Assembly (NCBI GenBank): GCA_963774955.1
Contig: CAVZGV010000004.1
Span: 296,716 to 360,715 of the forward strand
Origin: Candidatus Falkowbacteria bacterium
Lineage (GTDB): Bacteria > Patescibacteriota > Patescibacteriia > CAIXNZ01
Direction of reading: 5' to 3'
DNA: 64,000 nucleotides
Shown here: positions 23,901 through 53,630 of the stretch, in pieces
Layout: each line of letters opens with the position of its first letter
How positions within the stretch are numbered: position 1 is the stretch's first letter
Program-made: the position numbers and the translations under genes
Notes under the pieces: generated by a model
Told to the model about the DNA's origin: nothing
Seen by the model: the letters and a program-made list of their open reading frames with translations, nothing else
The model's database searches: none

Positions 23901-24370
23901 AAAATGGCAAGCTGACATTATATGACGGACGTACCGGTGAACCTTTCGGTAACAAGGTGACTGTCGGTTATAAATATATTTTGAAATTGAATCATATGGT
24001 GGAAGATAAGATCCATCAAAGGTCTATCGGCCCCTACTCATTGATTACCCAACAGCCTTTGGGCGGTAAAGCGCAATTCGGCGGTCAGAGATTCGGTGAA
24101 ATGGAAGTTTGGGCCCTGGAAGGTTATGGCGCGGCGCATACTTTGCAGGAAATTTTAACGATTAAGTCAGATGATGTGCCTGGTCGCGCCAAAGCGTATG
24201 AGTCCATTATTAAAGGTGAACCTATCAGAAAATTAAATATTCCCGAGTCATTCAATGTTTTGGTCCGTGAACTTAAGGGTCTTTGTTTGGATGTGGAATT
24301 ATTGGACGGAAAAAATGTAATTGATGATTCAACTAAGGAAGATCCCAAGAAAATCAGGGAAAAACAATAA
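20993..24370 (+). CDS. rpoB: DNA-directed RNA polymerase subunit beta
   Basis: 1125 aa with conserved RpoB blocks (e.g. GDKIAGRHGNKG, NMQRQAVP). Confidence 0.95.
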   Translation: MSSKKNNTQIQPGNQTKLEKRKFFSKEHEAMDVPDLVEVQKNSYNWFIREGLRELFDEITPIKDFGGRNLELAFKDYYLDEPKFDEKTSRAKNITYEASLRIKAVLSNKKDDVHKEQEIYLGDFPVMTDRGTFIINGIERTVISQIIRSAGVFFTSNYTRGKRYYGAKIIPNRGAWLEIETDANNILWVKIDRKRKVALTSLLRAFGYSSSEEILELFKDADSNPSVKYIQNTLAKDIAKNMDEGLIEVYKRIRPGDMATADNAKSLIYSMFFRFERYDLGKVGRYKINQRFNLDLANIPDNRILRKEDLLEIIKEIIRLNITQVDSDDVDHLSNRRIRSVGELIQNRFRIGLARMERIVRDKMSTVDIESMSPSKLVNAKPVMGVVKEFFMSSQLSQFMDQVNPLAELEHKRRISAMGPGGLSRERAGFEVRDVHTTHYGRICPISTPEGPNIGLVGQLSSFAKVNEYGFIETPYRVVERIALEDIKDPETNKVAIKKGQKVPKEIIDKLRNKNVGFSVKSRVTDDVVYLNALAEERSVTTAATTPLDESGHFIKPKAEVRKFGKPDFTPVSQVDYMDVASNQIVSISTSCIPFLEHDDAVRALMGTNMQRQAVPCIRPVPPLVGTGMESMAALYSGYLAISKADGKVVNVDGSGIEVLEDKGDLKFYDLNKFERSNASTCINQHPTVQKDERVKKGQIMSDGPSIAEAELALGQNVLVAFMAWGGYNYEDAVIINERVVQKDYFTSIHIENYQVEVRETKLGSEVVTSDIPNIAEEKLKNLDENGIVRIGAEVSSGDILVGKITPKGETELSAEEKLLRAIFGEKARDVRDSSLYLEHGDHGKVIDIKIFTQEHGDKLSPGVTQMVQVAVADLRKIQVGDKIAGRHGNKGIVSNVVPAEDMPFLADGTPIDFILSPLGVISRMNLGQILETHLGLAVQKLGFKVATPVFYGVSEEKIKELLTQAGFPENGKLTLYDGRTGEPFGNKVTVGYKYILKLNHMVEDKIHQRSIGPYSLITQQPLGGKAQFGGQRFGEMEVWALEGYGAAHTLQEILTIKSDDVPGRAKAYESIIKGEPIRKLNIPESFNVLVRELKGLCLDVELLDGKNVIDDSTKEDPKKIREKQ

Positions 24371-24407
24371 TTCATTTATTTTTTCATTTAATATTAAATA
24401 GTTTTAT

Positions 24408-27400
24408 ATGATTTTCAACCAAACCAAGCCATTAGAATTTGACGGCATCAGGCTCAAGCTGGCTTCTCCTGACGTGATTAGAATTTGGTCACACGGCGAA
24501 GTAACTAAGCCGGAGACGATTAATTATCGGACTCAAAAACCTGAAAAAGACGGGTTATTCTGCGAGAAAATTTTCGGACCATCAAAAGATTGGGAATGCT
24601 ATTGCGGTAAATATAAAAAGATCAGGTATAAGGGGATTATTTGCGATAAGTGCGGAGTAGAAGTTACCCATTCCATGGTCAGACGCGAACGCATGGGGCA
24701 TATAGAATTATGTTCGCCAGTTTCGCATATTTGGTTTTTGCGCGGCGTGCCTTCCCGTTTAGGATTAGTCTTGGATATTTCAGTCCAAAGTCTGGAAAAG
24801 GTCATTTATTTTGCGAGTTTCGTAATTACTTCTGTTAATCAGGACCTGAAAAATCAGGCCATGGAACAGCTGAAGGAAGAATACAAAAATAAGAAGAAAC
24901 AAATAGAGGCTAATTTCAAAAACCGGGTTAATCAGATTAAAACCAATAAAGATCTCAAGGAAAAGGAACAGGACAAAAAGATCATTGAATTGAATAAAGA
25001 AAGAGATTTGGAATCAGCTGAATTCGAAAAAGAATATGTTAAAACCGAGACGGACTTAAAGGAGCTCAAAGTAAAAAAAATTATTTCAGAAGATCAATAT
25101 CAGGATTTATCTCTTAAATTCGGCCATCTTTTTGAAGTGGCTATTGGCGCTGAAGCAGTCAGGAAATTGCTGGAAGTGATTGATTTGGAAAAAACTATAA
25201 AAAGTTTAGACGCCGAATTGGAAGAGGCGATCGGCACAAAAAAAGAAAGAGCTGTTAAACGTATTAAATTAATCAAGAATCTGGTTAAAAATAAAATCAG
25301 ACCTGAATGGATGATCTTGAATATGATTCCGGTTATCCCGCCTGATTTAAGACCGATGGTTCCTTTGGATGGCGGTCGTTTTGCCACTTCTGATTTGAAT
25401 GATTTGTATCGCCGGGTTATTAATAGGAACAACCGTTTGAAAAAATTAAAGGAACTCAACGCTCCGGAAGTTATTATCCGCAATGAGAAAAGAATGCTTC
25501 AGGAAGCTGTCGATGCTCTCTTGGATAATAGCGCCAGACATTCAAAGACAACTACGGCTTCAACCGGCCAAAAACGCCAGTTAAAATCAATTGCTGATAT
25601 TTTAAAAGGCAAGCAAGGTCGCTTTAGACAGAATTTACTGGGTAAACGTACTGATTATTCTGGCCGCAGCGTTATTGTTGTCGGTCCAAATTTAAAACTT
25701 GGCCAATGTGGCTTGCCTAAACGTATGGCGCTGGAATTATTCAAACCGTTTGTAATCAGTCAGCTTATTAAACGTGAATTTGTCCATAATATCAGAAGTG
25801 CCAATAGGTTTATTGAAAGCAACCGTCCTGAAATTTGGGATATTCTGGAAGAAATAGTTAAAGACGCCCATGTCTTATTGAATCGCGCGCCGACTTTGCA
25901 TCGCTTGGGCATCCAAGCCTTTAAACCAACTTTGATTGAGGGTAAAGCTATTCAATTACATCCTTTGGTTTGCGCTGCCTTTAATGCTGACTTTGACGGT
26001 GATCAAATGGCAGTTCATGTGCCTTTAACAGACCAAGCAAAAAATGAAGCCAAGGAATTGATGCTTTCTTCCAAGAATTTATTAAAGCCGGCAACCGGCA
26101 ATCCAATCGCTACTCCAAGAATGGATATGGTCTGGGGTTGTTATTATATAACGGAATTAAAAAAGTTAAGGGAAAATCTCAGATCTTTTGGCTCATTTGA
26201 AGAAGCAGTCTTGGCTTATAATTCAAAAATTATTACTGTTTCTGAAGAAATCGAAGCGCGTGATATTTTGCCAGGTAAAAAGAAGCCGGAAAGAATTATT
26301 ACTAATGTCGGACGCATCTTATTCAACCGTTTATTACCTCCAGAACTCGGGTTTTTCAATGAACAAGTTACCAGCAAAAATCTGGGTGATTTAATTAAAT
26401 TTTCCCTGGAAATAGTGGGTAAGGATAGAACTGCAAAATTACTTGATGACATTAAAGACCTTGGCTTTAAGTTTTTAACTTTAAGCGGTTATTCCTGGGG
26501 TATGGAGGATTTGCCGGAATTGCCTGGTAAACAGATACTAGTAGATGCTGGGGATGTGCAGATTGATGAGGTTAATGATCAATTTCAACAAGGTTTACTG
26601 ACCAAAAGTGAGCGTCATTCTAAGATCATTGAAATTTGGACCGCGGTTAAGGATAAAATCGTACAATTAGGTAAGGATTCATTGAGTAAAGAAGGTCCTG
26701 TTTTTTCCATGGTTACTTCCGGTGCTCGCGGATCCTGGACCCAGGTGACTCAGATGGTGGGTATGAAAGGCTTAGTATCCAATCCCGCAGGTGAAATTAT
26801 TGAATTGCCTGTCAAAGCCAGCTTCAAAGAAGGGTTTGATGTTTTGGAATATTTTATTTCTACTCATGGTTCCAGAAAAGGCTTATCAGATACTGCTTTG
26901 AGAACCGCTAATGCCGGTTATTTAACCCGACGTTTAGTTGATGTGTCTCAGGACGTAGTCGTTCGGGAGGAAGATTGCGGTGATAAAAAAGGCATGCTTT
27001 ATACTAAAAAAGACAGCGATGAAATCGGAGTTAATATCATGGAGCGCGTCTGGGGCAGAGTCAGTCTGGAAAAAATCACTGATCCAAAAACAAACGAAGT
27101 AATCGTTGATAAAGATCAATTAATTACTGAGGCAGTGGTGCGTAAATTACTACCTTTAGATTTGGAACAGATTACTGTCCGCTCGGTTCTGACCTGTAAA
27201 ATGACCAAAGGACTATGCACCAAATGTTATGGCTACGATCTCGGTTATAATGAAATGGTTAAATTAGGCGTAGCCGTCGGTATTATCGCGGCTCAAAGTA
27301 TTGGTGAACCAGGCACTCAGCTGACGATGAGAACTTTCCATACCGGTGGTGTGGCTGGTACTGATATCACTCAAGGTTTACCTCGGGTGGAAGAACTTTT

Positions 27401-28295
27401 TGAAGCTCGTCCGCCTAAGCGTAAAGCTATATTGGCCGAAGAAGACGGCCTGGCTTCTATTTCTGATGCGCCCAAGAAAATTGAAGATGCCAAGGGCCGG
27501 GTTATATTTAGCTCCACCCATGGCCAAAAGATATTGAAGATAAAATTTGATGATGTGGAAGATGATTCATATTCCTTTAAAGGTCAAGCTCCGACCTTAA
27601 AAGTTAAAGAAGGGGACAAGGTCGTTAAAGATGAAGTTTTGTTTAAATTAGGTAAAACAGAAATGAAAGTTAAACGAGATGGCGTAGTTAAGATTACTGA
27701 AAAAACCGTAAAAGTAGTCTGTAATGTTGAAAAGGAAAAAGAATATCTCATCCCCTCAGGCTATCGTTTATGGATCAATGACGGAGATTTTGTAAAAAAA
27801 GGCGATCAACTGACAGAAGGCAGTTTGGATTTACATCAATTATATAAACTTAAAGGACGCGATGAAGTCAAGCGTTATGTGGTTAAAGAAATTCAGTATA
27901 TTTATGCTTCCCAAGGCCAGCGTTTAAATGAAAAGCATATTGAAGTTATTATTAAACAGTTGTTTAGCCGTGTCTTAATTAAAGATGCCGGTGATACCAA
28001 TTTATTGCCTGGCGAAATAGTGGAAAAAGCTGAAATGGATGAAGCTAATATAGAGATTGATAAAACCAAGGGCAAACAGGCCACTTCTGAAGAATTATTC
28101 CTGGGCATTACCAAAGTCTCATTGACTACCCGCAGTTTCTTGTCTGCCGCTTCTTTCCAGGAAACATCACGTGTCTTGATCAATGCGGCCTTGACCGGCA
28201 AGATTGATAAACTGGAAGGCTTGAAAGAAAATGTGATTATTGGCCGCTTGATTCCGGCCGGCACCGGCTTTAGGAAGAAAAGTAAAGATGAGTAA
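24408..28295 (+). CDS. rpoC: DNA-directed RNA polymerase subunit beta'
   Basis: 1295 aa with NADFDGDQMAVHVP and zinc-binding cysteines. Confidence 0.95.
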   Translation: MIFNQTKPLEFDGIRLKLASPDVIRIWSHGEVTKPETINYRTQKPEKDGLFCEKIFGPSKDWECYCGKYKKIRYKGIICDKCGVEVTHSMVRRERMGHIELCSPVSHIWFLRGVPSRLGLVLDISVQSLEKVIYFASFVITSVNQDLKNQAMEQLKEEYKNKKKQIEANFKNRVNQIKTNKDLKEKEQDKKIIELNKERDLESAEFEKEYVKTETDLKELKVKKIISEDQYQDLSLKFGHLFEVAIGAEAVRKLLEVIDLEKTIKSLDAELEEAIGTKKERAVKRIKLIKNLVKNKIRPEWMILNMIPVIPPDLRPMVPLDGGRFATSDLNDLYRRVINRNNRLKKLKELNAPEVIIRNEKRMLQEAVDALLDNSARHSKTTTASTGQKRQLKSIADILKGKQGRFRQNLLGKRTDYSGRSVIVVGPNLKLGQCGLPKRMALELFKPFVISQLIKREFVHNIRSANRFIESNRPEIWDILEEIVKDAHVLLNRAPTLHRLGIQAFKPTLIEGKAIQLHPLVCAAFNADFDGDQMAVHVPLTDQAKNEAKELMLSSKNLLKPATGNPIATPRMDMVWGCYYITELKKLRENLRSFGSFEEAVLAYNSKIITVSEEIEARDILPGKKKPERIITNVGRILFNRLLPPELGFFNEQVTSKNLGDLIKFSLEIVGKDRTAKLLDDIKDLGFKFLTLSGYSWGMEDLPELPGKQILVDAGDVQIDEVNDQFQQGLLTKSERHSKIIEIWTAVKDKIVQLGKDSLSKEGPVFSMVTSGARGSWTQVTQMVGMKGLVSNPAGEIIELPVKASFKEGFDVLEYFISTHGSRKGLSDTALRTANAGYLTRRLVDVSQDVVVREEDCGDKKGMLYTKKDSDEIGVNIMERVWGRVSLEKITDPKTNEVIVDKDQLITEAVVRKLLPLDLEQITVRSVLTCKMTKGLCTKCYGYDLGYNEMVKLGVAVGIIAAQSIGEPGTQLTMRTFHTGGVAGTDITQGLPRVEELFEARPPKRKAILAEEDGLASISDAPKKIEDAKGRVIFSSTHGQKILKIKFDDVEDDSYSFKGQAPTLKVKEGDKVVKDEVLFKLGKTEMKVKRDGVVKITEKTVKVVCNVEKEKEYLIPSGYRLWINDGDFVKKGDQLTEGSLDLHQLYKLKGRDEVKRYVVKEIQYIYASQGQRLNEKHIEVIIKQLFSRVLIKDAGDTNLLPGEIVEKAEMDEANIEIDKTKGKQATSEELFLGITKVSLTTRSFLSAASFQETSRVLINAALTGKIDKLEGLKENVIIGRLIPAGTGFRKKSKDE

Positions 28296-28325: not shown

Positions 28326-28361
28326 GAAAAAACACCTCTCGGAAACGGGGGTGTTTTTTTT
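28326..28361 (+). terminator. rho-independent terminator of rpoC (copy 1 of a duplicated roughly 35 bp sequence)
   Basis: aaaaaacacctctcggaaacgggggtgtttttttt. Confidence 0.7.
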
Positions 28362-28493
28362 GTATTAATTTTTATGATGATTTTATAAAAATTTCATCTG
28401 TTTGCGGTATAATTAAGTCAAATTATGGCTTTACTGCCGCCTGCGCTTAAGTTATAATTAGTACAGGTATGCTTAATTATTTTTTAAAGTTTT

Positions 28494-36789: not shown

Positions 36790-38605
36790 CCAATTACAAT
36801 TAATCAAATATGACGGGGCGTGGTCGAACCCTGTTTGGGACTCTGGCAAAACAAGTTTTACAAGTTCAGTTTTAGAAGGCGATAGGACGGAGGATATTGC
36901 GTATGACGGCGATGCATTGCCTTTGGACGGCATGAGGTACAATTGGAGGATTAAGCTGTGGGACGAATCTGATAATGAGGGCGAGTGGACCAATGGCGAA
37001 GATTTTTTCATCATGCAGGGCAAGAGAATTCAGGATTTGAGTTATACTTACGATGACGTAGGGAATATAATGCGAATAGATGACCAATCGGAGACAAATA
37101 CCAGGAAAACCGCTGAATACGAATATGACGAATTATATCGCTTAACCAGCGCCACAATTACCGATTCCGCCACTGAAGAAGATTACACGCAGACTTATAC
37201 GTATGACAGCTTGGGCAACTTTACTAATCGTTCCGATGTCGGTGATTATGAGTATGAGGGCAATCAGGGAACCAACTATGCCAATCCGCATGCGGTTACC
37301 AGCGTACAGAATGATGCAGTGGTCATAAACTATGACCATAATGGCAATCTGTTGTCAGAAATTATTTCTGGGTATAACTGGACAATATTTGAAGCCGGGT
37401 GGGATTATAATAACCGGATGATAACAAGCGGAGGTTGGTCAGCAGAAACCTTGTACCGCTATGATCACAGCGGGCAGAGGATTCTAAAGGATACCGGCGA
37501 TGAATATAGCGGCATTACGTCCATTTATGCTAATCAGTACTACAACGAGCGGACAAATAAGGAAACATCGGAATTGACCAAGACATTGAATGTGTATGAC
37601 AACAAAGGTAATTTAGTCGCCACCGCAGAAGAAGCCGGTGAGACAAATAATCTTTACTATGTGAATGGTGATCATTTGGGAAGTTCCAGCGTGATGACGA
37701 CTGACGAGGGTGAGCAAGAGCAGGTGGTTGATTATTTCCCGTTTGGGAATATGCGGTTTAATGAGCAGAGGATACAAAATGAAAGCTATGATCAGAAGGA
37801 AAAATTTTCCGGAAAAATTTTCGATCAGGATGCCGCGGGGTTAAGTTACTTTGGGGCGAGATACTATTCGGGGGAGGCCGGGAAGTTCATTAGTCAGGAC
37901 CCTGTATTTTTAGCAGTTGGGGATGGTGAAGGTTATAAGAAATTGACTAATTTTAAATTTGAACTTTATCTTTCCAATCCCCAATTACAAAATTCCTATG
38001 CGTATGCAGCTGATAATCCTTTAAAATTTATTGATACAAAAGGCAATATTGCTGAAACAGTCTGGGATGCCGGATGTGTAGCATTTGACATTGGTAGCTA
38101 CTTCCATAATGAGTTGAAAGCTGTTGGTGCTTTATTCCGAGGCGATCTTAGTGGCGCGGTCAATCATACAAACGAAGCAATGGGCTTTCTGTTAAATCTC
38201 GGAGTAGATACTGGGTCTGCTATGATCCCTTTTGTTCCCGCTGGGTTATCGCATGTTGATGATGCGGCTAAAGCGACATCATTAGTTAGACAGAACTGGG
38301 CTAAGGGTATGCAGTTTGAGAATAAAGTCTTGAATTTATTGGGAGAATCTAAAAACACTCAAAAGATTTCTACTCAATTTGGTAATGTGATACCTGATAT
38401 TTATAATAAGGCAGGAAATATTATTGGTGAGATAAAAAATACTGCGTATGCATCCCTAACAAATCAATTTAAGGGTATTTTAGAAATGGTAGAAAAAGGG
38501 AAATCCCAATTTACATTATATGTAAATCAAAATACTAAAATTTCTGGGCCGTTACAAAAAGCGATAGATACCATTAAAGGAACAGTACAAAGAATAACTC
38601 ATTGA
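36790..38605 (+). CDS. orphan RHS-core cassette with alternative C-terminal toxin (PD-(D/E)xK nuclease-like); longest ATG-ORF is 36917..38605
   Basis: About 90% identical to the giant gene's 3' region from the junction caattaatcaaatatgacgggg onward. The tail diverges after NPLKFIDTKGN, with IPDIY...GEIK suggesting a REase fold. Confidence 0.65.
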
Positions 38606-39598: not shown

Positions 39599-42500
39599 AT
39601 GTCTAAACTCAAAATTTGGTTGGGTACCATTTTATTTGCCATAAGTAGCATCCCGAATATTTCTTTGGCAAATATTTCTGATGGGCAAATCAATCTTGAT
39701 AAAACTGATTTTTTTGAAATCGGGTATGTTTTTGCTGGAAACGAGCCAATAGCATTAGTTCTATCAGAGAAGAAGGATGCGGAATTTAAACAACTAATAG
39801 TCCTTCCAGAACAAAAGGTTCAGCACGACTTTCTCGGACGTCCTGTTGATTACCAGAATTACCCCCAGGACAAAACAGTGTATCTGAAAGCTGATCCTAA
39901 TGTTAAGCCCCAAGCCTTGCCCAAAGAGGCGATTGAGTCGTTTGATAAGGCGAGCGAGAAATGGAACCAAAAGCCGGAGTTAAAGACATTGTTGCCCCAG
40001 GAGGCTGTTGATTATATGTCCAAGCAGGAAACAGCCAAGGGTATGAATATGCTGCTTTCAGGTACTCCGCCTAATCCGTCCACTAATTTGAATTCCAATG
40101 ATTTATGGCTGAGTCAAAATTTAATCACCAATCCGGGCTTTGAAGACGGGTTTAATAACTGGAGCTGGCAGAATAAACAGGGGGACACGCACCAGGAAGA
40201 CTGCACGGTTTCATACAGTGGCAGTTGTTCGGAAAAGGTTTCAGTTGCCTCAGCCGGTAATTTCTGGGAAACCCAGGTCTTTCAGGTTTTAAGATTAGAT
40301 CAGAATACGGATTATAAACTGCGCTTTAAGCTTAAGGCGTCAACAAGCGCAAGTTTTTCACTGGAAGCGGTGCAAAACCACACGCCGTTTAATAACTTGG
40401 GCTTATGGAAATACCAGCTGACCGCAAGTACTGACTGGCAGGAATACGAATTTTATTTTAGCGGACTGGCAACTGATCAGGATGCCAGACTGACCTTTTA
40501 TTTGGGTGAAAGCGCCGCTGATTATTGGTTTGACGACATAGAATTGATTCCTGACAATTTTAACCGCCTGAAAAACCCGAGTTTTGAAAATGGTACTACG
40601 AGCTGGGATTTTTACATCTACTCTCAGGGACAGGGCACTTTAAGCACCGATACAGGCGCCATGCCTGACGGCAATACAGCCGCCAAAATAGACTTTACCG
40701 GGGCAGGAGAAAACTGGGAAGTCAATCTGGCCCAGGGAATAGGGGCAGTAAGTTCGGCTAAGACTTATGCGGTTACCTTTTACGCCCGTTCTTTTTATCA
40801 GAACCGGCTGGCTTATGTGGCTCTGGCGCAGAATTATAGTCCCTGGTCAGATTTGACTGATGAGGTAGAATTTACAGCTACGCCTGACTGGCAAAAGTAT
40901 GAAATAGATTTTACTCCAAGTTCTTCGGATTCCAATGCCCGGGTAATTTTCCTGCTGGGTACTGACACGATCAGCATTGAGTTTGACGACATTCATGTCT
41001 TTGAAAAACAGGTGACCAGGTTTGACACTGAACCCACTTTTAGCGCGATTTACGATGATCCGGATTCAGGGGATTATGCAGAATATTACCAAGTTCAAAT
41101 AATAAAGTATGACGGGGCCTGGTCGAACCCCGTCTGGGACTCTGGCAAAACAAGTTTTACAAGTTCAGTTTTAGAAGGCGATAGGACGGAGGATATTGCG
41201 TATGACGGCGATGCCTTGCCTTTGGACGGTATGAAGTACAACTGGAGGATAAAGTTATGGGACGAATCTAATAATGAAGGCGCCTGGACTAATGGCGAAG
41301 ATTTTTTCATCATGAATGGCAAGAGGATTCAGGACTTGTCTTATTCGTATGACAACGTTGGCAACATTGCCCAGATAATTGATCAATCGGAGACAAATAC
41401 CAGAAAAACCGCTGAATTACGAATATGACGAATTGTATCGCCTAACGTTCGGCTACGATTAGCGGACAGCTGCGACAAATGAGGATTACACTCAGACATA
41501 TACTTATGATTCTTTGGGTAACACTACTAGATCAGGTCTGATGTAGGCGATTACGATTATGAAGGCAATACAGGTTCAAATTACGCCAATCCGCATGCGG
41601 TAACCAGCGTACAGAATGACGCAGTGGTAATAAACTATGACCAAAATGGAAATCTGATCGACGAAGTTTTAAGCCAGTATCAATGGACTATTTTTGAGGC
41701 GGAGTGGGATTATAATAACCGGATGATAACAAGCGGAGGTTGGTCAGCAGAAACCTTGTACCTCTATGATCATAGCGGGCAGAGGATTCTAAAGGATACC
41801 GGCGATGAATATAGCGGCATTACGTCCATTTACGCTAATCAGTACTACAACGAGCGGACAAACAAGGAAACCTCGGAATTGACCAAGACATTGAATGTGT
41901 ATGACAACAAAGGTAATTTAGTTGCCACCGCAGAAGAAGCCGGCGAGACAAATAATCTTTACTATGTGAATGGTGATCATTTGGGAAGTTCCAGCGTGAT
42001 GACGACTGACGAGGGTGAGCAAGAGCAGGTGGTTGATTATTTCCCGTTTGGGAATATGCGGTTTAATGAAAGAAGCGATGCGGAGAATTGGTCCTTTGAC
42101 GAAAAGAAAAAGTTCACGGGGCATGAGTATGACGCGGACGCCGCTGGCCTTACTTATATGGGAGCACGCTATTATAGTGGAGAGGCGGGTAAATTCATAA
42201 GTCAGGATCCATTATTTTGGATTGTTGGTGATAAAGACTATAATGATATGTGGAGAGAAAAATTATTTTCCCCGCAGTCGTTAAATTCATATTCTTACGG
42301 TCTAAATAATCCGATGATATATTTAGATCCAACGGGTTTAGATAGTGATGTATTTTACACAAAACCTTTCTCATCTCAGGCATCAGCTGAACAAAGTAGA
42401 TTATCTTCAGCATATGGAGAACCAGTGTATATGCATGAAGTTTCAACTGTTAATCAATTTACATCTGCCTGGAATGGTATGGGTAAAAATGGTTCAGATA

Positions 42501-44394: not shown

Positions 44395-46220
44395 ATTACC
44401 AAGTTCAAATAATAAAGTATGACGGGGCGTGGTCGAACCCTGTTTGGGACTCTGGCAAAACAAGTTTTACAAGTTCAGTTTTAGAAGGCGATAGGACGGA
44501 GGATATTGCGTATGACGGCGATGCCTTGCCTTTGGACGGTATGAAGTACAACTGGAGGATAAAGTTATGGGACGAATCTAATAATGAAGGCGCCTGGACT
44601 AATGGCGAAGATTTTTTCATCATGAATGGCAAGAGGATTCAGGACTTGTCTTATTCGTATGACAACGTTGGCAACATTGCCCAGATAATTGATCAATCGG
44701 AGACAAATACCAGAAAAACAGCCGAATACGAATATGACGAATTATATCGCCTAATTTCAGCGACAATTACGGATTCCGCCACAGAAGAGGATTACACCCA
44801 GACCTATACTTATGATTCTTTGGGTAACACTACTTATCGTTCTGATGTAGGCGATTATGATTATGAGGGCAATACAGGTTCAAATTACGCCAATCCGCAT
44901 GCGGTAACTAGCGTACAGAATGACGCAGTGGTAATAAACTATGACCAAAATGGAAATCTGACCGACGAAGTTTTAAGCCAGTATCAATGGACTATTTTTG
45001 AGGCGGGGTGGGATTATAATAACCGAATGGCGACATCAGGAGGTTGGTCGGATTCTGCTGTTTATAAATATGACCATAGCGGACAACGAATATGGCAGGA
45101 GACCGGAGGCCAGTATTATGGCGTAAAAACAATTTACCCGAATAAATACTATAATGAAAGGACGGATAAGTTTCTGGCTGAGACTGTTGACACCTTGCAA
45201 ATATATGATAATAAAGGGCAGTTAATAGCTACCGGGGAGGAAAACGGAGAAACTTCAAATATTTACTTTGTCCATAATGATCATCTAGGTTCTTCCAGTG
45301 TAATGACAAAAAGTGACGGGAATGTTGAGCAGGTAATCGATTACTACCCGTTTGGTGATATCAGATTCAACGAAAGAAGTGATCCTGATAATAATTCCTT
45401 TGACGAGCGCGTCAAGCATTCTAACCATTTGTACGATGACAATACGTCATTAACATACATGGGGGCTAGGTATTACACAGGAGCCGGGGGAAAATTTGCG
45501 AGTCAAGATGAGGCATATTTAGCTGTTGGTAGTAGTCAATTAAGGGATCTAACTAATAGAAGTTTAAGCGAATATTTAGGCGATCCTCAGAATTTAAATT
45601 CTTATACTTACGCACGAAACAATCCTATAATAAATATTGACCCCACTGGCAATTTTTGGTGGTATGGATTTTATAATTGGAGCGGATATAATGGTTTCAG
45701 TGGTTTCATGATGAAGGCGGGGGAAGTTTTAGGCGGTCATAATCGAGCGATGAATGTAATTCAGCAGAATCAAACTATAATAAATGAAACAAGCGATAAA
45801 TATGGGGTTAATCCCAATTTAACCAACGCAATTATTTATGAAGAGCAGTCTCATCTAACTCCAGATGAAGTTGTGGGAAGAGAGCAACTATTGCCTGATG
45901 TAGGGAGTGGTGGCGTGGGTGTAATGCAAGTAAGTGCAAAAGTCGGTGAAGAATTTGGGTATAGTAAAAGTGATTTAGCTCGCGATCCGGTTAAGAATAT
46001 AAATGCGGGAATTCAGAATTTATCTAAAGAGCAGAATGTATCTAATTCAGCAGCAGTTACAGCAAGTAAATATAATAATAGCCAAGCTACTAATATTACA
46101 AATTATGGATTAAGAGTAGAAGCTCAATTAAACAATCCCAGTTATAACCGCAATATTATAACTGATGTTAAGAATTCGGTTTCAGCGATTAAATCACTGT
46201 ATAATTTAATAAGTAAATAA
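44395..46220 (+). CDS. orphan RHS-core cassette with lytic transglycosylase (SLT)-like C-terminal toxin; longest ATG-ORF is 44526..46220
   Basis: Homology to the giant gene starts at ccaagttcaaataataaagtatgacgggg. The tail after NPIINIDPTGN contains IYEEQSHL...GSGGVGVMQVS, an SLT-like catalytic-Glu context. Confidence 0.6.
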
Positions 46221-46569: not shown

Positions 46570-47655
46570 ATGTTTATAAATACCAAATATTACCAAGTTC
46601 AAATAATAAAGTATGACGGGGCCTGGTCGAACCCCGTCTGGGACTCTGGCAAAACAAGTTTTACAAGTTCAGTTTTAGAAGGCGATAGGACGGAGGATAT
46701 TGCGTATGACGGCGATGCCTTGCCTTTGGACGGTATGAAGTACAACTGGAGGATAAAGTTATGGGACGAATCTAATAATGAAGGCGCCTGGACTAATGGC
46801 GAAGATTTTTTCATCATGAATGGCAAGAGGATTCAGGACTTGTCTTATTCGTATGACAACGTTGGCAACATTGCCCAGATAATTGATCAATCGGAGACAA
46901 ATACCAGAAAAACCGCTGAATACGAATATGACGAATTATATCGCCTAACGTCCGCCACGATTACGGACAGCGCCACTGAAGAGGATTACACCCAGACATA
47001 TACTTATGATTCATTGGGCAACACTACTTATCGTTCTGATGTAGGCGATTATGATTACGAGGGCAATACAGGTTCAAATTATGCCAATCCGCATGCGGTT
47101 ACCAGCGTACAGAATGACGCAGTGGTCATAAATTATGACCAAAATGGAAATCTGACCGACGAAGTTTTAAGCCAGTATCAATGGACTATTTTTGAGGCGG
47201 GGTGGGATTATAATAATAGGATGATAACAAGCGGAGGCTGGTCTGCAGATACCGTGTACAGCTATGATTACAGCGGGCAGAGAGTCTTTATGGAAACCGG
47301 TGATGAGTATTCGGGCAAGGTCAATATTTATGCTAATAAGTACTATAGTGAAACAACTGACAAGGAAGCATCGGAACTTACCAAGACTCTGTACGTCTAT
47401 GATAATAAAGGCAATTTAGCGGCCACCGGGGAAGAAAAAGGAGAAACCAGCAATCTTTACTTTGTCAGTGGAGATCATTTAAGTTCGTCCAGTGTCATGA
47501 CAACGGATCAAGGCGAAATAGAGGAAGTGATTGATTATTATCCTTACGGCAATTTGAGGTTTAATGAAAGAAGCGATGCGGAGAATGGGTCCTTTGATGA
47601 AAAGAAAAAGTTTTTGGAAAGATTAATTATTCTTAATATATTAATTAATAATTAA
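46570..47655 (+). pseudogene. truncated orphan RHS-core cassette (no toxin tip)
   Basis: Colinear with the other cassettes but ends ...NERSDAENGSFDEKKKF then junk. Confidence 0.55.
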
Positions 47656-47667
47656 CTTTTCAAAAAT

Positions 47668-48285
47668 ATGAAATTTTATTACATTTTTGAGCAAGAAGAA
47701 GATTTGAAATATGTTCCTTTAGTGAGTAATAAATATACAGTTTACGGGTTGAAAGATTATGAACTTGAGGAAGGCAAATTTATTAAGAGATGGGATAACC
47801 GAAATGTGTTGTATTATGACAAAGAAGGTATTTGCGAGGATTTTTTATCAAACACGCTATTTGCTCCGGTTATTTCCCAAAGAATTAAAGATATTCTTGA
47901 AAAAGAGCTAGGGATAAAAGGTATTCAATTTTTTCCTATATCTATTAAGCACACCAAGAGTGATAAGGTTGTGTATGGTTATTATGTTATGAACGTTACA
48001 AATTTAGTTAGAGATGCCCTTGATAGGGAAAAATCTATATTTAGTGTTACGGAGTTACCAAAACTGAATATCAGATCAGAAACTGTGATGTTTTATACGT
48101 TAGATGTAGATAGGTTAAGGGGACAAGACGTTTTTCGTGTGGGAGATGGTAGATTATTTGTATCTGAAAGAGTAAAGGATGCATTTGATAAATCTGGTGT
48201 GACGGGCATAGCTTATGGAGGGACTTGGCTATCCGGTGATAAAAATAGACCTTGGGAGAAAAAGAAGTTAAAATATAACTTATGA
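47668..48285 (+). CDS. hypothetical protein (possible orphan immunity gene)
   Basis: 205 aa; no recognisable domain. Confidence 0.35.
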   Translation: MKFYYIFEQEEDLKYVPLVSNKYTVYGLKDYELEEGKFIKRWDNRNVLYYDKEGICEDFLSNTLFAPVISQRIKDILEKELGIKGIQFFPISIKHTKSDKVVYGYYVMNVTNLVRDALDREKSIFSVTELPKLNIRSETVMFYTLDVDRLRGQDVFRVGDGRLFVSERVKDAFDKSGVTGIAYGGTWLSGDKNRPWEKKKLKYNL

Positions 48286-48537: not shown

Positions 48538-48822
48538 ATGTCTAAAATAAACTTAGAATTTAAATTACCCGTGTCTTTTTTGCGTGAAGGAAATAAGTAC
48601 ATCGCTTATACTCCTGCGCTAGATTTATCTACTTCCGGCAAAACTTATAAAGAAACAAAAAAAAGATTTGAAGAAATTTCGCAGATTTTTTTTGAGGAAC
48701 TAATAAAAGAGGGTACTGTAGATAGCGTTTTGACTGATTTAGGCTGGAAAAGGGTTCGGTCCAGATGGAATCCGCCGGTTTTAATTTCCCAAGAATCCCA
48801 GCTAATTAAAATGGCTGCCTAG
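48538..48822 (+). CDS. hicB: HicB-like antitoxin (UPF0150/DUF1902-like)
   Basis: KYIAYTPALDLSTSGKTYKETKKRFEE pattern; adjacent to HicA. Confidence 0.5.
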   Translation: MSKINLEFKLPVSFLREGNKYIAYTPALDLSTSGKTYKETKKRFEEISQIFFEELIKEGTVDSVLTDLGWKRVRSRWNPPVLISQESQLIKMAA

Positions 48823-48827
48823 TTTAT

Positions 48828-49058
48828 ATGCCTCATTTAACTCCTATCGCCTGGAAGAAATTTGAAAAATTTTTATTATTTGTAGGCTGTAATTTTACAA
48901 GGGAAAAGGGCGACCATCGGGTATATTGGCGCGAAGGACTGAAAAGACCTGTAGTTATTCCGCGAAGCGGGGATTTACCAATTTTTATCATAAGAAATAA
49001 TTTAAGAGTATTGGGAATTAGTCCAGATGAATACATTGAAATATTGAAACAGGTATAA
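48828..49058 (+). CDS. hicA: HicA-like mRNA interferase toxin (YcfA family)
   Basis: REKGDHRVYWREGLKRPVVIPRSGDLPIFIIRNNLRVLGISPDEY matches the GSH...P.h PF07927 pattern. Confidence 0.6.
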   Translation: MPHLTPIAWKKFEKFLLFVGCNFTREKGDHRVYWREGLKRPVVIPRSGDLPIFIIRNNLRVLGISPDEYIEILKQV

Positions 49059-49145: not shown

Positions 49146-49544
49146 ATGCATGATTATCAAAGCTTATCTCATTCAAAATGGGACTGCAAATATCATTTGG
49201 TTTTTATTCCCCAGGGTCGGCGAAAAATACTTTTCGGCAAAATAAGAAAGTACTTGGGTAATATTTTCCACGAACTGGCAAAGTATAAAAGTTGCACAAT
49301 TTTAGAAGGACATTTTATGTTGGATCATGTTCATATGTGCATTCAGATACCGCCCAAATTTTCCGTGGCTTCAATCGTGGGCTATCTCAAGGGTAAAAGC
49401 GCCATCATGATCGCCAGGCAGTTTGGCGGCAAAGAAAGAAATTTTAACGGCGAACATTTTTGGGCGCGCGGTTATGCTGTTTCAACCGTGGGATTTGAAG
49501 TTAATCGGATTAGGCAATATATTAGGGAGCAGGATTTGCATTAA
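49146..49544 (+). CDS. tnpA: IS200/IS605-family TnpA (Y1 transposase)
   Basis: YHLVFIPQGRRKIL, HVHMCIQIPPK (HuH) and GYAVSTVG (catalytic Y); 132 aa. Confidence 0.8.
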   Translation: MHDYQSLSHSKWDCKYHLVFIPQGRRKILFGKIRKYLGNIFHELAKYKSCTILEGHFMLDHVHMCIQIPPKFSVASIVGYLKGKSAIMIARQFGGKERNFNGEHFWARGYAVSTVGFEVNRIRQYIREQDLH

Positions 49545-49628
49545 CTAATTATAAATGATACTCATCAGGCATATAAAAGAAAAAGCGTTTAGATATAAAG
49601 GTGAAAAATTACTTTTTAATATAGATAT

Positions 49629-49666
49629 AAAAAACACCTCTCGGAAACGGGGGGCGTTTTTTTTTA
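49629..49666 (+). terminator. rho-independent terminator (copy 2 of the duplicated rpoC-terminator sequence)
   Basis: aaaaaacacctctcggaaacggggggcgttttttttt; 34/35 identical to 28326-28361. Confidence 0.65.
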
Positions 49667-49898
49667 AGTCTAAAGTATAAAGTCTAAGATCTAAAGTAGG
49701 TATAGTTGAATTAGTTATTTCTAAAATTAGCCTTTAGCCTTGTTTGGTTTATTTTGGTCAAATCAGGCTGACAAATACAGGGATACATTCTTGGTATTTA
49801 TCTAATATTAGCTAAAATGTAATCTGGGGGTATTGACAAGTCTCTTTAGATATGATATAGTGGCAAATCACGCTGAAAAAAGCTATTAGGCGTCCTCC

Positions 49899-49928
49899 TT
49901 GACAAATTGTCAAAAGTGTGCTATACTA
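49899..49928 (+). promoter_or_regulatory. consensus sigma70 promoter (TTGACA-18-TATACT) with TTGACAATTGTCAA palindrome; a second one at 49833-49861 (TTGACA-17-TATAGT)
   Basis: Direct sequence reading; both point into the GC-rich island. Confidence 0.5.
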
Positions 49929-50247
49929 ATAAATCATGAAATTTGAAAAATAAACACTTTAGTGACCAGCAATATGGGGGTAGTAGTGCATTAGGTCAGT
50001 AGAGTTTTCCGGCTCAGCTAGAAAACTTCTACGCCTGGTGTTTAACTGATAAGGCTCTGTCCTATATCAGTCGTCTCGCTTCGCGGGACAACACCTCCAT
50101 ATTCTTGGTCATTAAAATAGTTCGAGCTTCTAACAAAGGGCACAGAGTTCCATTTAAATTTAAAATGTACTTTTTAAACAGCGGGACTTCTTAAGCCCTT
50201 TGTCAGGATCTTGAACGCTTTGTCTAACTGCAAGAAAGGAGAAAAGA

Positions 50248-50409
50248 ATGAAACCGGAAATAAACAAGACGAATAAGAAACCCATGGCCTGGATCATGCG
50301 CGTTCGTGACGAAGTCGTGGCGCAGGTGCCCCTGGGAGTGGCTCGCCACTACCAGAAGATCGGTACGGCGATGATCATCGCCTTTTGCGTCAACGGCAAG
50401 ATCCACTAA
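50248..50409 (+). CDS. small GC-rich ORF (53 aa)
   Basis: SD AAAGGAGAAAAG. MKPEINKTNKKPMAWIMRVRDEVVAQVPLGVARHYQKIGTAMIIAFCVNGKIH. Confidence 0.3.
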   Translation: MKPEINKTNKKPMAWIMRVRDEVVAQVPLGVARHYQKIGTAMIIAFCVNGKIH

Positions 50410-50588
50410 GCCGAGATCCACAGCACGAGGGACTGTCAAAAGTCCCTACTTCACCCCAAGACGGGATAGTCTCGCGTAGATTATTTTGTCTTGAGGCGAG
50501 GTCTTAAGTGATCTTTCAAAATTGTTGGTGGAGAAATCCACGCCTATCAGGGAGCAATTCCTGATATACAAAAAAGGAGGAGACGCCC

Positions 50589-51413
50589 ATGACCGAACCC
50601 AATACCGCGACCGATACGACCGCGACCGAACCCGTGATCGAACCCACCGCCGGCGAGCAGGTTTTCACCTGCGCCTGTTGCGGGCACGAAGCCACGGCCG
50701 AAGACGGCGTCGTGACCAGCATGGTCAACGGTCGGTCCAAGATTACCGACGCGACCATGTGGGCCGCGGCCGGCCAAGTCGGATCCGAAACCACGCTCGA
50801 GGTCTTCTGCAAGAAATGCGTGACCGAAGGCGAGGAAGACGGACAGGTGTTCTTCCCGTTGAAGAACGCCCTGGCCTACGCCGACCGCGTCAAACGGCAC
50901 TTTCCCAAGCGCGAGCGACTGCTCGAGTCGGCGAGAGAGCCGGAGATGCGGGAGTCCAGGCCCGAGATGGTCTGCAAAAACTGCGGCAAGCGCCACGGCC
51001 AGATCGACAACTACCGCGGCGACGTGACCATCATCCGCAAGGCTCTGCGAATCGACTTCCAAAAGAAGCCCTTCATCGCCGAGTTCCTCTGCGGAGAGTG
51101 TCTGGCCAAGCTCGGTCTGCTGCCCAAGAAGAACGCCGATGGCAGCTTCACGCAGCCGCAGGGCCTCTTCCCCCCGTGGAAGACGCTGACGATGGCCAAG
51201 GCCGCCGAAGCTGAGCGTCTCGAGCGTATCGCTCGAAACGATGAGGCCAGGCAGCGGAAAGCCGCACAGCGCCAGCGGGAAGACGAGATCCGTCAGCAGG
51301 CGCTGGCTCCCAAGCCCAGCCCCCAGACCAGGGTCTTCTATCGACCCGCGGGCAAGCCCGGCACCGGCAGCATGAGCCATCACGCCAACCGTAAGGCCGG
51401 CAACGGCAATTAA
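50589..51413 (+). CDS. GC-rich (about 63%) Cys-rich hypothetical protein with two CxxC...CxxC zinc-ribbon-like modules and a charged coiled-coil tail
   Basis: SD AAAGGAGGAG 8 nt upstream. Modules FTCACCGHE...FCKKCV and VCKNCGKRHG...LCGECL. Confidence 0.5.
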   Translation: MTEPNTATDTTATEPVIEPTAGEQVFTCACCGHEATAEDGVVTSMVNGRSKITDATMWAAAGQVGSETTLEVFCKKCVTEGEEDGQVFFPLKNALAYADRVKRHFPKRERLLESAREPEMRESRPEMVCKNCGKRHGQIDNYRGDVTIIRKALRIDFQKKPFIAEFLCGECLAKLGLLPKKNADGSFTQPQGLFPPWKTLTMAKAAEAERLERIARNDEARQRKAAQRQREDEIRQQALAPKPSPQTRVFYRPAGKPGTGSMSHHANRKAGNGN

Positions 51414-51414
51414 C

Positions 51415-51672
51415 AAATCTTAGCTTTCGCTAAGTTGGGACAAATGGTTGTTTTGACAACCCCCCGGTCCTGTTAAACGATGGGTTTGGAAAACGTTCCT
51501 AATATCCACAGGATAACTGAGGATAGCGAGGAACAATTGGAGAGGATCCAATCTGCCAAAGCAATGATGGTCAAAGACCATATCATTCCTTAAGCAGACA
51601 TCCCCTCGGGTAGAGACCAAACGTCCTGCCCAACCCTTTGAGCCCATAAAGCAATTTGTGGTTTCAAACAGG
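51415..51672 (+). repeat. roughly 250 bp structured repeat element, copy 1 (starts right after the stop codon)
   Basis: Aligns with 51850-52094 (aaatcttag..ctaag hairpin, ggYtgttttgacaRcc hairpin, caattggagaggatccaatc, ccRtaaagYaatttgYggttt). Confidence 0.55.
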
Positions 51673-51707
51673 TTAATAAAAAACAATAATCCCCAGCCAA
51701 GGAGAAA

Positions 51708-51848
51708 ATGATGCCCAAGTTTCTGCAGGTCATGTTGGCGAATATTCCTTTCCTCGAAGGCAATCAGCCCGACGGTCGCATCCGGCACTATATCTTCCCG
51801 GACGGCCATGTCCTCGAGATCAACCTGGACGCGCTCCCGGCTCTCTGA
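51708..51848 (+). CDS. small GC-rich ORF (46 aa)
   Basis: SD CAAGGAGAAAATG. MMPKFLQVMLANIPFLEGNQPDGRIRHYIFPDGHVLEINLDALPAL. Confidence 0.3.
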   Translation: MMPKFLQVMLANIPFLEGNQPDGRIRHYIFPDGHVLEINLDALPAL

Positions 51849-51849
51849 A

Positions 51850-52094
51850 AAAATCTTAGGCACACTGCTAAGTTTGGGCAAATGGCTGTTTTGACAGCCA
51901 ACCCGGCCCAGTAAAACGAGGGGTATCAACGCGCTCCATTATTTCCGCCTAAGAATTAGGAAATGATCAGGAGCAAATTGGAGAGGATCCAATCCTGTTG
52001 CGGCAAAGCGCTAAAACAGGAAAATATCCTGGGGCGAAACCTTGTTTCGCCCGACTTTCTGAGACCGTAAAGTAATTTGCGGTTTGAGAAAGGG
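51850..52094 (+). repeat. roughly 250 bp structured repeat element, copy 2
   Basis: See copy 1. Compensatory changes in two hairpins (ggttgt/acaacc versus ggctgt/acagcc). Confidence 0.55.
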
Positions 52095-53364
52095 AAAGGT
52101 CAAAAGTTGCATACAACTTTGACACCTTATCTTAGAACGGAAAGCTTGCTAAAGTAATTAAATGCTGATTCAGCAGCCAAACAAGTTTGCGTTCTTAGAT
52201 AAGGAAGTATTTTGAAAATATTTTAAAAGGAGGAAACGTGAACCGGAAGGCTTTTTTCCGCGCCAAAAGCAGGGGACCGCCCTGAAATTAGTCCGAGGAG
52301 ACAGTATAAAACTCCCGGTCATCGCCGAAAAGGAGCCAAAATGCGCTGGAAACTCAAGTTGACCGCGGGGACCTGAGACCCCGAGTACACTCAGGTACTG
52401 TTTAAGAGCAATCTTAGGCAGTAAGGTAATGTAGTCGCGTCAGCACAGATTGGCGGGAATCGCCCACCCTGGGCAAATCCGGATTTGGACGCGGCGTTTT
52501 ACCTCGCCGGATCACCTCAAGCTCCACAGGAGGGAAAACATGACCTTCCACAGCGGTTTCACCTAGGTACACATTAACAGACAGAACCTGACTGAACACC
52601 GACATGATCTTTTTTTCGTCCGTAATACTGTTGTCTGCCGGCAAAGGTTGTCGGAGCATTAGGCGGCAGTCCCTGCCAGGTTTGACCCCCGGTCTCGGGC
52701 CTCTTCGCCCAGCAGTCAAACCGGCTCATCGTCATCATCCCCAGGAGGGTGCCCATGAGACGACTTCACGGACGGGGTTCCTGGATCCCCTGAATTCAAA
52801 TACCAGGATCAGTCTCTGCGCTCCCAAAAAGGAGCAAGAACCAGACCTCCTAAGGGTCACTGTTCCGTTCGACTTTTCATACCCGACAAAAATTTGCAGC
52901 ACTTACTCTTAAAAAGGGTTACGGCCGCGACATAAATCCATGTGGTATACCACTAGTGATCTTGTACGCGATTGCCAATGCCCAAAAAGTAATAATCAGA
53001 GAAGTATGCAAAAGCTTTTGCGGGTTCCGTTGCTTGAACACGCCGGCCTTGGCACCGATATTTCGGTAGCTACTACCGGCACGGACTCGCGCGAGTATGG
53101 TGGCTATCCGGCCCCCTCCACGCTGCGATTGCCCATCGTAGCGTTCCTCTCATCGCCGGAAGAATGGCCACGGCGGGGACCGGGGCGAGGATCCCTCGCT
53201 CCGGCCCCGCACCCCAATCGCAGGCGAAAAAAATCGGACCAAAATCGGACAAGATCGGACAATGACAAGGAGAAGGACAAATGAAACGAAGTTACCGTCG
53301 CCCCAGTTATTGCTGACCCCGACACCGGCTTCGGCCCCGGGTTGCCTCTGTACCCTAAACAGAG

Positions 53365-53397
53365 GGCGCCAAGCTCACAGCTTGGCGTATTTTTTTT
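53365..53397 (+). terminator. rho-independent terminator closing the GC-rich island
   Basis: gcgccaagct caca agcttggcg followed by tattttttttt. Confidence 0.65.
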
Positions 53398-53630
53398 GGT
53401 GAAAAAGTGTTAGGGTAAGGATGCTAGTTAAGTGAATAGTGAAAAGTGTGGATGGTTAATTCTATACACTTTAAACACTCAATACCTTACTATCTACTAG
53501 ATTCATTGACGATTCACCAGGAATAAAAAAACAGCCTAATAATCAGACCGAGTGAAACGAGGGAAATAGATTCTTCGCTTCGCTCTGAATGACTACTAGG
53601 CTGTTTTATATGTGGGTAGTAGTTTATCAA

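Follow-up and report, generated by a model that had tools for sequence, protein, structure and literature searches.

Among described systems, the large structured non-coding RNAs (ncRNAs) OLE, GOLLD, ROOL and HEARO provide a close point of comparison for the locus reported here, a GC-rich unit at 49830-53400 of a 64,000-nucleotide (nt) stretch of contig CAVZGV010000004.1 from a Candidatus Falkowbacteria bacterium. This stretch is referred to as the window, and coordinates are those of the window; all relatives of the unit are metagenome-assembled genomes (MAGs) or metagenome sequences, and the evidence is wholly computational. Like the RNAs just named, the unit has a lineage-specific structure supported by covariation, extends over hundreds to thousands of nucleotides, is GC-enriched relative to its genome and is presumably abundant. 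Unlike them, it is without an Rfam match even at E ≤ 10, carries open reading frames (ORFs) under purifying selection, is built of modules, universal in the 5' part and lineage-specific in the 3' part, and is GC-rich even at the third positions of its codons.

A second point of reference is given by polycistronic transcripts processed by RNase III, such as the early RNA of phage T7 and the leaders of rRNA operons with tandem P1/P2 promoters. Tandem strong promoters and near-perfect hairpins of about 20-25 bp between segments are common to these transcripts and to the unit. Here, however, strong sequence conservation of the hairpins suggests that they have a specific binding partner, and cleavage is only predicted. 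Individual parts of the unit resemble known kinds, namely structured leaders, arrest upstream ORFs and zinc ribbons, and none of them belongs to a described family. We know of no described system with the whole architecture of the unit, and in the literature on structured and regulatory RNAs of Patescibacteria and Parcubacteria we found nothing comparable.

Taken together, the comparisons that follow make it reasonably probable that the unit is a native, vertically inherited, lineage-specific and very strongly transcribed locus of a Parcubacteria clade, in which an expression platform is followed by a structured polycistronic RNA. Relatives were gathered with two probes, a 20-mer of leader sequence and a degenerate one for a hairpin termed element B, giving 4 genomic and 36 metagenomic loci (numbered L001, L002 and so on; the window copy is denoted win). 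About 28 distinct Parcubacteria loci, in independent assemblies, show the same order of leader, element B and GC-rich ORF. Wherever a relative has enough flanking sequence, the unit occupies the same slot, downstream of rbfA/nrnA (leftward) and of rpoB and rpoC (rightward; 20993-28295 in the window), and facing hup, ymdB and rny (leftward); 22 loci have rpoC upstream, and 12 have hup downstream. The universal parts are two invariant near-consensus promoters, a leader of about 255 nt, element B and a GC-rich cargo gene, which in the window encodes a double zinc-ribbon (Zn) protein of 274 amino acids (aa). Identity to the window falls in parallel for RpoC and the Zn protein (94/71, 89/41, 85/30, 81/32, 80/24 and 77/27 percent), as expected, because vertical descent of a fast-evolving gene predicts such a pattern. 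One contig, L005 (CAZHFK010000003.1), was deposited as 'uncultured Gammaproteobacteria'; its rpoC, hup, ymdB and rny are of the Parcubacteria type (60-80% aa identity to the window), its locus has the same architecture, and it is probably mis-binned.

The composition jump reported in an earlier, sequence-only reading of this DNA is real, but the figure of about 60% GC holds only for 50230-51420 (0.595). The GC fraction is 0.522 over 49830-53400, compared with 0.404 for the 64-kb window and 0.397 for the remainder outside the island, and it drops to 0.46 at 51420-52300 and is 0.54 at 52300-53400. At third codon positions (GC3), the Zn gene remains at 0.82-0.85 in three genomes (0.83 in the window) despite a dS of 0.56-0.83, with flanking genes at 0.28-0.46. 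Changes at four-fold sites of this gene, counted as strong-strong, strong-weak and weak-weak (S-S:S-W:W-W), are 16:16:3, 15:15:1 and 21:17:0, close to the 0.34:0.28:0.014 that a stationary GC3 of 0.83 would give; the counts in host genes are 4:64:12 and 22:139:25. Since the pattern fits a stationary GC3, the GC richness is maintained, and not that of a fading import. Over 20 loci the cargo has a mean GC excess of +0.17, least in L010 and L042. Fold z-scores average -1.8 across the island, reach -3 to -5.6 in its non-coding blocks and are -1.6 in coding sequences (CDS), compared with -0.24 ± 1.06 for rpoC/rny. Our best guess is that selection on the RNA, for stability or structure in an AT-rich cell, keeps the unit GC-rich, rather than a foreign origin.

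The two strong host-type promoters and the terminator of the sequence-only reading were confirmed (Table 1). Promoters P1 and P2 outscore every other sigma-70 match in the region, and the terminator at 53366 is the strongest terminator there. The whole of about 3.5 kb would form one transcript, and the unit seems to rank among the most strongly transcribed of its host genomes. Starts led by a Shine-Dalgarno (SD) sequence number 23 on the plus strand and 3 on the minus strand; dinucleotide shuffles have 4.4 ± 2.8, and as many were seen in 0 of 300.

The leader folds into two domains, D1 and D2. D1 has a minimum free energy of -74.3 kcal/mol (z = -9.6) and, across nine loci, compensatory changes in helices 1, 4, 6 and 7; in D2, helices 8 and 9 comprise 25 pairs (alignment A6), with double changes in 8. 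For the leader as a whole in nine loci, 95% of cells are paired versus 37-52% with slid partners, double changes occur in 21 of 72 pairs, and none of 500 shuffles does as well. Between genomes with a cargo CDS identity of 72-76%, leader identity is about 98%. In helix P2 of D1, 49974-49982 (UAUGGGGGU) pairs with 50097-50105 (ACCUCCAUA), and the 3' strand holds CACCUCC, identical to the 16S anti-Shine-Dalgarno core; the helix may be an SD/anti-SD mimic, or the identity a coincidence.

Element B is a hairpin of 24 bp. A stem with a conserved 25-nt loop was considered and rejected, as co-variation inside this 'loop' led to one continuous 24-bp hairpin. In 32 distinct copies, 96.2% of cells are paired versus 42-51% in slid comparisons, with double changes in 8 pairs. 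Positions 23-46 were fixed by the search probe, and invariance there is no evidence; pair 29-35, which the probe left free, is U-A in 26 copies and C-G in 6, with no mismatch combinations. Seven copies lie outside the unit, downstream of TGnTATTAT-type promoters and upstream of an SD and start codon, in the layout promoter, GGGGAU..AUCCCC hairpin, element B, AAAGAGCUUUGCUCUUU hairpin, SD. The genes downstream of element B are uncharacterised small membrane-protein genes at these other sites and cargo genes in the unit. Because it lies between the promoter and the SD of seven other loci, element B is likely to be a general 5'-untranslated-region (5'-UTR) element. It is a candidate for a new cis-regulatory RNA motif with a regulon of its own: a covarying structure, a location between promoter and SD and an association with several unrelated genes, by which such 5'-UTR motifs are recognized, were all found. 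Element B would give the cargo shared translational or stability control with other genes. In L027 (396-1193), element B is followed about 450 nt on by the end of hup, with no cargo ORF; the cargo was apparently lost and the hairpin kept in one lineage or more. The long perfect hairpins of the unit (the D1 closing stem, D2, element B and the stems of the 3' modules) would serve as sites of processing, stabilisation or protein binding, and RNase III-type cleavage at them is a guess.

The 274 aa frame is a genuine coding sequence, with a dN/dS of 0.30-0.49, differences by codon position of 56/41/92, and indels in multiples of three; its dN is 3-5 times that of hup, ymdB and rny. The duplicated CxxC...CxxC modules noted earlier were borne out: the eight Cys residues of the four CxxC pairs, together with an HG dipeptide, are invariant in ten homologs with identity down to 25%. 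An AF2 model (pLDDT 79.5) has two Zn modules rich in beta structure and a long charged helix spanning residues 196-239; both termini are disordered. The protein has three close relatives among 5.8 billion clusters and, in a full HMMER pass, eight families among 1.84 billion representatives; homologs of the cargo outside Parcubacteria/Patescibacteria were not found. Pfam, PHROG, NCBIfam and PDB yielded no relative, only sub-threshold Zn-ribbon noise, and structural searches gave no fold match (hits at E ≥ 0.04, TM about 0.1). Compared with zinc-ribbon and treble-clef modules, such as ribosomal Zn-ribbon proteins, ZZ domains and HNH-associated CxxC pairs, the cargo shows no match beyond one of its modules. 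An HNH or beta-beta-alpha-Me endonuclease was rejected, since only H136 is invariant and there is neither a Pfam HNH match nor a set of conserved catalytic residues. The zinc-ribbon protein would bind nucleic acid, possibly its own RNA. The sequence-only reading had rightly warned that ORF calling is unreliable in this region. An antisense ORF of 289 aa was rejected as a true gene on the codon-position differences just given and is a by-product of GC-rich coding.

An all-against-all BLAST comparison splits the cargo ORFs into a Zn family of 14 and a non-Zn family of 9, the latter equally rare and unannotated; homology between the two was rejected (hhalign probability 0.1%). GC3 is high in the two families alike (0.55-0.89), and many of their proteins begin with a basic or Gly-rich arm. 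Subsets of each end in [KR]TGT[DN] or ATGTDD followed by a Lys-rich tail (L005, L009, L015, L019, L024, L033, L041 and L042). The micro-ORF MRWK... of the window's subclade likewise ends in AGT or TGT. In L003 there are two paralogous Zn cargo genes.

Downstream of the cargo, the tandem structured repeats of the sequence-only reading turned out to be covariation-supported RNA modules of about 280 nt. Six copies in three genomes share ten helices, in which 93% of cells are paired, whereas slid partners give 34-51%. Double changes occur in 15 pairs, and no shuffle out of 500 equals this. The small ORFs listed earlier (53 and 46 aa, and the micro-ORFs at 52238, 52341 and 53281) were likewise found, as was every other listed feature, at or near its place. 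Purifying selection acts on the 46 aa ORF (pN/pS 0.27-0.40, mostly third-position changes); the slot of the 53 aa ORF varies by lineage, with unrelated small ORFs there in other loci. SD-led starts exceed the chance expectation, as given above. MKRSYRRPSYC (53281-53316) shows no conservation in relatives, and two conserved micro-ORFs, MTFHSGFT and MRRLHGRGSWIP, had been overlooked. In the window's subclade the four conserved micro-ORF families are AFF-x4-RGPP, MRWK..GT, ..SGF[TNGA] and ..RG[SC]WIP, the last three directly before the stop; a control on the reverse strand gave no conserved families. SGF is conserved as a peptide, because its Ser switches between AGC and TCN, any of the four Gly codons may occur in it, and the nucleotides on either side diverge. 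Micro-ORFs as universal features were rejected, being restricted to the window's subclade.

Two further observations concern the 3' end. Just upstream of the MKRSYRRPSYC micro-ORF, at 53232-53262, are three tandem GGA-rich units of about 10 nt resembling AAUCGGACAA, which we take to be similar to clustered GGA protein-binding motifs. A 33-nt stretch within the Zn-protein CDS (50689-50721) is 76% complementary to 53311-53343, just before the terminator and 2.6 kb away; pairing between them could close the whole transcript over a long range.

Table 1. Features of the GC-rich unit and of the island upstream of it (window coordinates, except where oriented-locus positions are given).
Feature	Position	Strand	Remarks
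Promoter P1, TTGACA-17-TATAGT, extended -10 TG	49833-49861	+	11/12; hexamers kept in all six aligned loci
Promoter P2, TTGACA-17-TATACT, extended -10 TG	49899-49927	+	11/12; kept in all six aligned loci; regex match in L007, L009
Leader domain D1	49960-50114	+	interrupted closing stem of about 20 bp (helix P1 and invariant helix P2, UAUGGGGGU/ACCUCCAUA) over a multi-hairpin junction
Leader domain D2	50121-50215	+	long hairpin, invariant apical AAAUGUAC
53 aa ORF, SD-led	50248-50409	+	homologous to a 42 aa ORF in L001, pN/pS 0.53
Element B, 24-bp hairpin with CNNGU loop	50449-50501	+	32 distinct copies; small hairpin precedes at 50428-50447
Element B copies outside the unit	L016 682; L020 392; L025 2620; L030 3241; L037 7023; L040 2804; L046 1033		oriented-locus positions
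Double zinc-ribbon cargo protein, 274 aa	50589-51413	+	four invariant CxxC pairs; charged helix, residues 196-239; basic disordered tails at both ends
Structured RNA module, copy 1	51405-51690	+	fold z -3.0 to -3.8
46 aa small protein (...EGxQPDGRIRHYxFPDGxxLEINLDxLPAL)	51708-51848	+	homologs in L002, L007; weaker in L009
Structured RNA module, copy 2	51838-52105	+	fold z -3.4 to -5.6
Conserved long hairpin, apical UGCUGAUUCAGCA	52125-52205	+	inverted repeat I3, 89% complementary; conserved in L001, L002, L007, L003
Micro-ORF VNRKAFFRAKSRGPP, then stop	52238-52285	+	AFF-x4-RGPP arrest-type motif; peptide conserved in 4 genomes
Micro-ORF MRWKLKLTAGT, then stop	52341-52376	+	conserved in win, L001, L007; extended in L002; stop inside conserved hairpins
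Micro-ORF MTFHSGFT, then stop	52540-52566	+	SGF peptide kept in 7 loci
Micro-ORF MRRLHGRGSWIP, then stop	52755-52793	+	C-terminal RG[S/C]WIP before the stop conserved in win, L001, L007
Lineage-variable GC-rich structured 3' region	52800-53360	+	fold z to -5.2 at 53080; poor conservation with L001, L007
Intrinsic terminator of the unit	53366-53397	+	10-bp stem at 53366-53388, then T8; conserved in L001, L007
rpoC terminator, second copy	49625-49661	+	homologous to the terminator directly after rpoC in L001, L002 and to window 28327-28372; scored as terminator
SpvB+RHS giant protein, 2562 aa	28766-36454		toxin island
Tox-REase-7 protein	36917-38605		toxin island
CBM_4_9 protein	39599-41428		toxin island
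SLT transglycosylase	44526-46220		toxin island
Orphan RHS tip	46570-47655		toxin island
Imm11 immunity protein	47668-48285		toxin island
HicB-like/HicA pair	48538-49058		toxin island
IS200 tnpA without tnpB	49146-49544		toxin island

The micro-ORF with the AFF-x4-RGPP motif is a candidate minimal arrest switch. RGPP is an experimentally robust arrest motif, refractory to EF-P; proteomes avoid it, and small upstream ORFs are enriched in it at their C-termini (PMC12992588). Here it is found in all four orthologs, 0-8 residues from the stop, and the AFF-x4 spacing is fixed. The AFF codons (GGCUUUUUU) pair in silico with the SD of the next ORF (AAAGGAGCC) over 9 bp that are invariant in four genomes; these pairs never vary and hence carry no covariation support. 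The micro-ORF would act as a ribosome-arrest switch, in that with ribosomes upon it the AFF codons would be unable to sequester the SD of the next micro-ORF. The C-terminal RGPP, the fixed upstream spacing and the pairing of the next SD with sequence inside the arrest ORF are like those of the RAPP/RGPP arrest peptides SecM, MifM, ApdA/ApdP and CruR (PMC12992588, PMC10987492). Unlike them, the peptide here has only 15-23 aa and is without a signal peptide, transmembrane or hydrophobic segment, and the regulated ORF is a micro-ORF of 11 aa instead of a sec/yidC or metal-homeostasis gene.

Several points weigh against the interpretation of the unit as a native expression platform followed by a structured polycistronic RNA. 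The structure excess over CDS is moderate (z = -1.6, 9 windows), and a GC3 of 0.83 may need more than RNA structure as its cause. The single-transcript model and the strength of expression are deduced from the DNA sequence alone. A ribosome stalled at RGPP would be about 25 nt 3' of the AFF arm, so a direct unmasking of the SD is not certain on geometric grounds. Two unrelated cargo families share the slot, interleaved among hosts of similar RpoC identity, and therefore some replacement or exchange must have occurred. Lastly, as only the window's subclade has the modules and most of the micro-ORFs, these cannot be the core function.

We regard as unlikely, though worth weighing first, a dual-function giant RNA or ribonucleoprotein (RNP), in which the structured RNA of about 3.5 kb would be the main product, as a scaffold, sponge or particle RNA, and would assemble with self-encoded nucleic-acid-binding proteins, the ORFs mainly supplying partners. 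That the non-coding blocks are the most conserved, with the leader so much closer among genomes than the cargo CDS, is in line with this, as are the strong covariation in three separate RNA elements, the basic disordered arms and Lys-rich tails of cargo in both families, and the retention of element B without cargo in L027. So is the composition of the unit, a GC-rich stretch in an AT-rich genome being the classic signature of structured RNA exploited in GC-IGR screens. However, purifying selection acts on the ORFs, whose SDs are strong, the 3' modules are not universal, and the binding of RNA by the proteins is purely predicted. There is also no match to a known large RNA family: an Rfam 15 gathering scan of the 64-kb window returned two tRNAs only, and none of OLE, GOLLD, ROOL, HEARO, rRNA, RNase P, tmRNA, 6S or SRP; at E ≤ 10 the best hit in the region reached 25.9 bits versus a threshold of 95 bits; and ARAGORN found no tmRNA. 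An rRNA operon or other housekeeping RNA was rejected on the same scans.

Somewhat less probable still is a hotspot for exchangeable host-interaction effectors, that is, a fixed high-expression site (promoters, leader and element B) at which cargo would be swapped by recombination and the TGTDD/Lys-rich tail would serve as a signal for sorting or export. The one slot houses at least two cargo families that are unrelated, both with a C-terminal [KR]TGT[DN]/ATGTDD and basic tail; the elevated dN relative to flanking genes and the two paralogous cargo genes of L003 also fit. Parcubacteria, moreover, are thought to be host-dependent (PMC11665869). Nevertheless, no signal peptide or transmembrane segment is seen in the cargo proteins, no secretion genes are linked to the locus, the divergence of the Zn family tracks RpoC and points mainly to vertical descent, and the GC richness and structured RNA would be left unexplained. 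More doubtful again, we can conceive of a new class of dual-function giant RNA: a transcript of about 3.5 kb, universal in the Parcubacteria clade, whose composition, including coding third positions, would be held by selection on the RNA, and which would form an abundant RNP with its own basic-tailed proteins, perhaps a particle packaged or exported for the dealings between episymbiont and host, with the TGTDD/Lys-rich tail as an assembly or export tag.

Very improbable, and largely refuted, is the leading idea of the sequence-only reading, a recently acquired foreign island, whether a mobile element, a plasmid or phage remnant, or an integron-like cassette array. A GC anomaly of +0.12 to +0.27, orphan genes without homologs beyond a narrow group, and an IS200 tnpA immediately upstream in the window do recall genomic islands. 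The unit differs from these in its fixed syntenic position in about 28 assemblies, in a divergence that tracks the host, in a stationary GC3 that shows neither amelioration nor a donor lineage, in promoters and SDs that are host-type and invariant, and in the absence of mobility machinery: no integrase, transposase, relaxase or attC-like repeats were found inside 49830-53400. Searches of the unit against phage and plasmid collections by blastn gave no hits, and neither the leader nor the two cargo families have a relative among 2.9 million viral contigs; a single viral match to the element B probe (L047, identical with L036) is a chance match without the stem, and L013 is likewise due to chance.

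The IS200 element occurs next to the unit only in the window and at no other locus. A polymorphic-toxin island of about 21.3 kb (28373-49624; Table 1) separates rpoC from the unit here and is bracketed by the rpoC terminator copies at 28327-28372 and 49625-49661. Since IS200 is part of this separate insertion bounded by duplicated rpoC terminators, its adjacency to the unit is incidental; the second terminator copy, judged by its homology, is the ancestral upstream boundary of the unit. Integron cassette arrays, for their part, share with the unit one promoter region, exchangeable promoterless cargo and a fixed site, but the unit has no IntI and no attC, and element B precedes the cargo and is also found in 5' UTRs belonging to unrelated genes. 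An integron was rejected accordingly, with no IntI or other recombinase in the loci examined, and with repeats that are multi-helix modules of about 280 nt restricted to one subclade. A diversity-generating retroelement was rejected because the repeat copies differ by every kind of change (G>T, A>G, T>C, CC>AA) and the unit contains no reverse transcriptase (RT), as were a CRISPR/TIGR-like array, a retron and a type III toxin-antitoxin system (no RT, integrase, Cas/Tas or toxin, and a misfit of repeat size and substitution pattern). Finally, an assembly chimera or contaminant, which the composition jump and nothing else would favor, can be dismissed, as an independent Logan assembly, contig ERR15459710 (5093 nt), crosses the IS200/island junction (tnpA, then the 53, 274 and 45 aa ORFs) and dozens of NCBI, ENA, JGI and Logan contigs span rpoC, leader, cargo and hup.

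What survives of the sequence-only reading, beyond its statement that no known family fits, is thus its last alternative, a 'novel RNA-plus-small-protein system', and the interpretation that we favor remains that of a native, strongly transcribed Parcubacteria locus. Much of bacterial diversity belongs to the Patescibacteria (CPR), whose regulatory RNAs and lineage-specific abundant products are almost unstudied. To these the unit adds three covariation-supported RNA elements, namely the leader, a 24-bp hairpin with its own candidate regulon and a repeated module, together with two orphan protein families and micro-ORFs conserved at the level of the peptide. An equilibrium GC3 of 0.83 in a genome of 40% GC, in unrelated genes of one expression site, is hard for standard mutation-selection models to accommodate. 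The locus also carries a warning, in that 'foreign island' calls based on composition can flag native loci under unusual selection.

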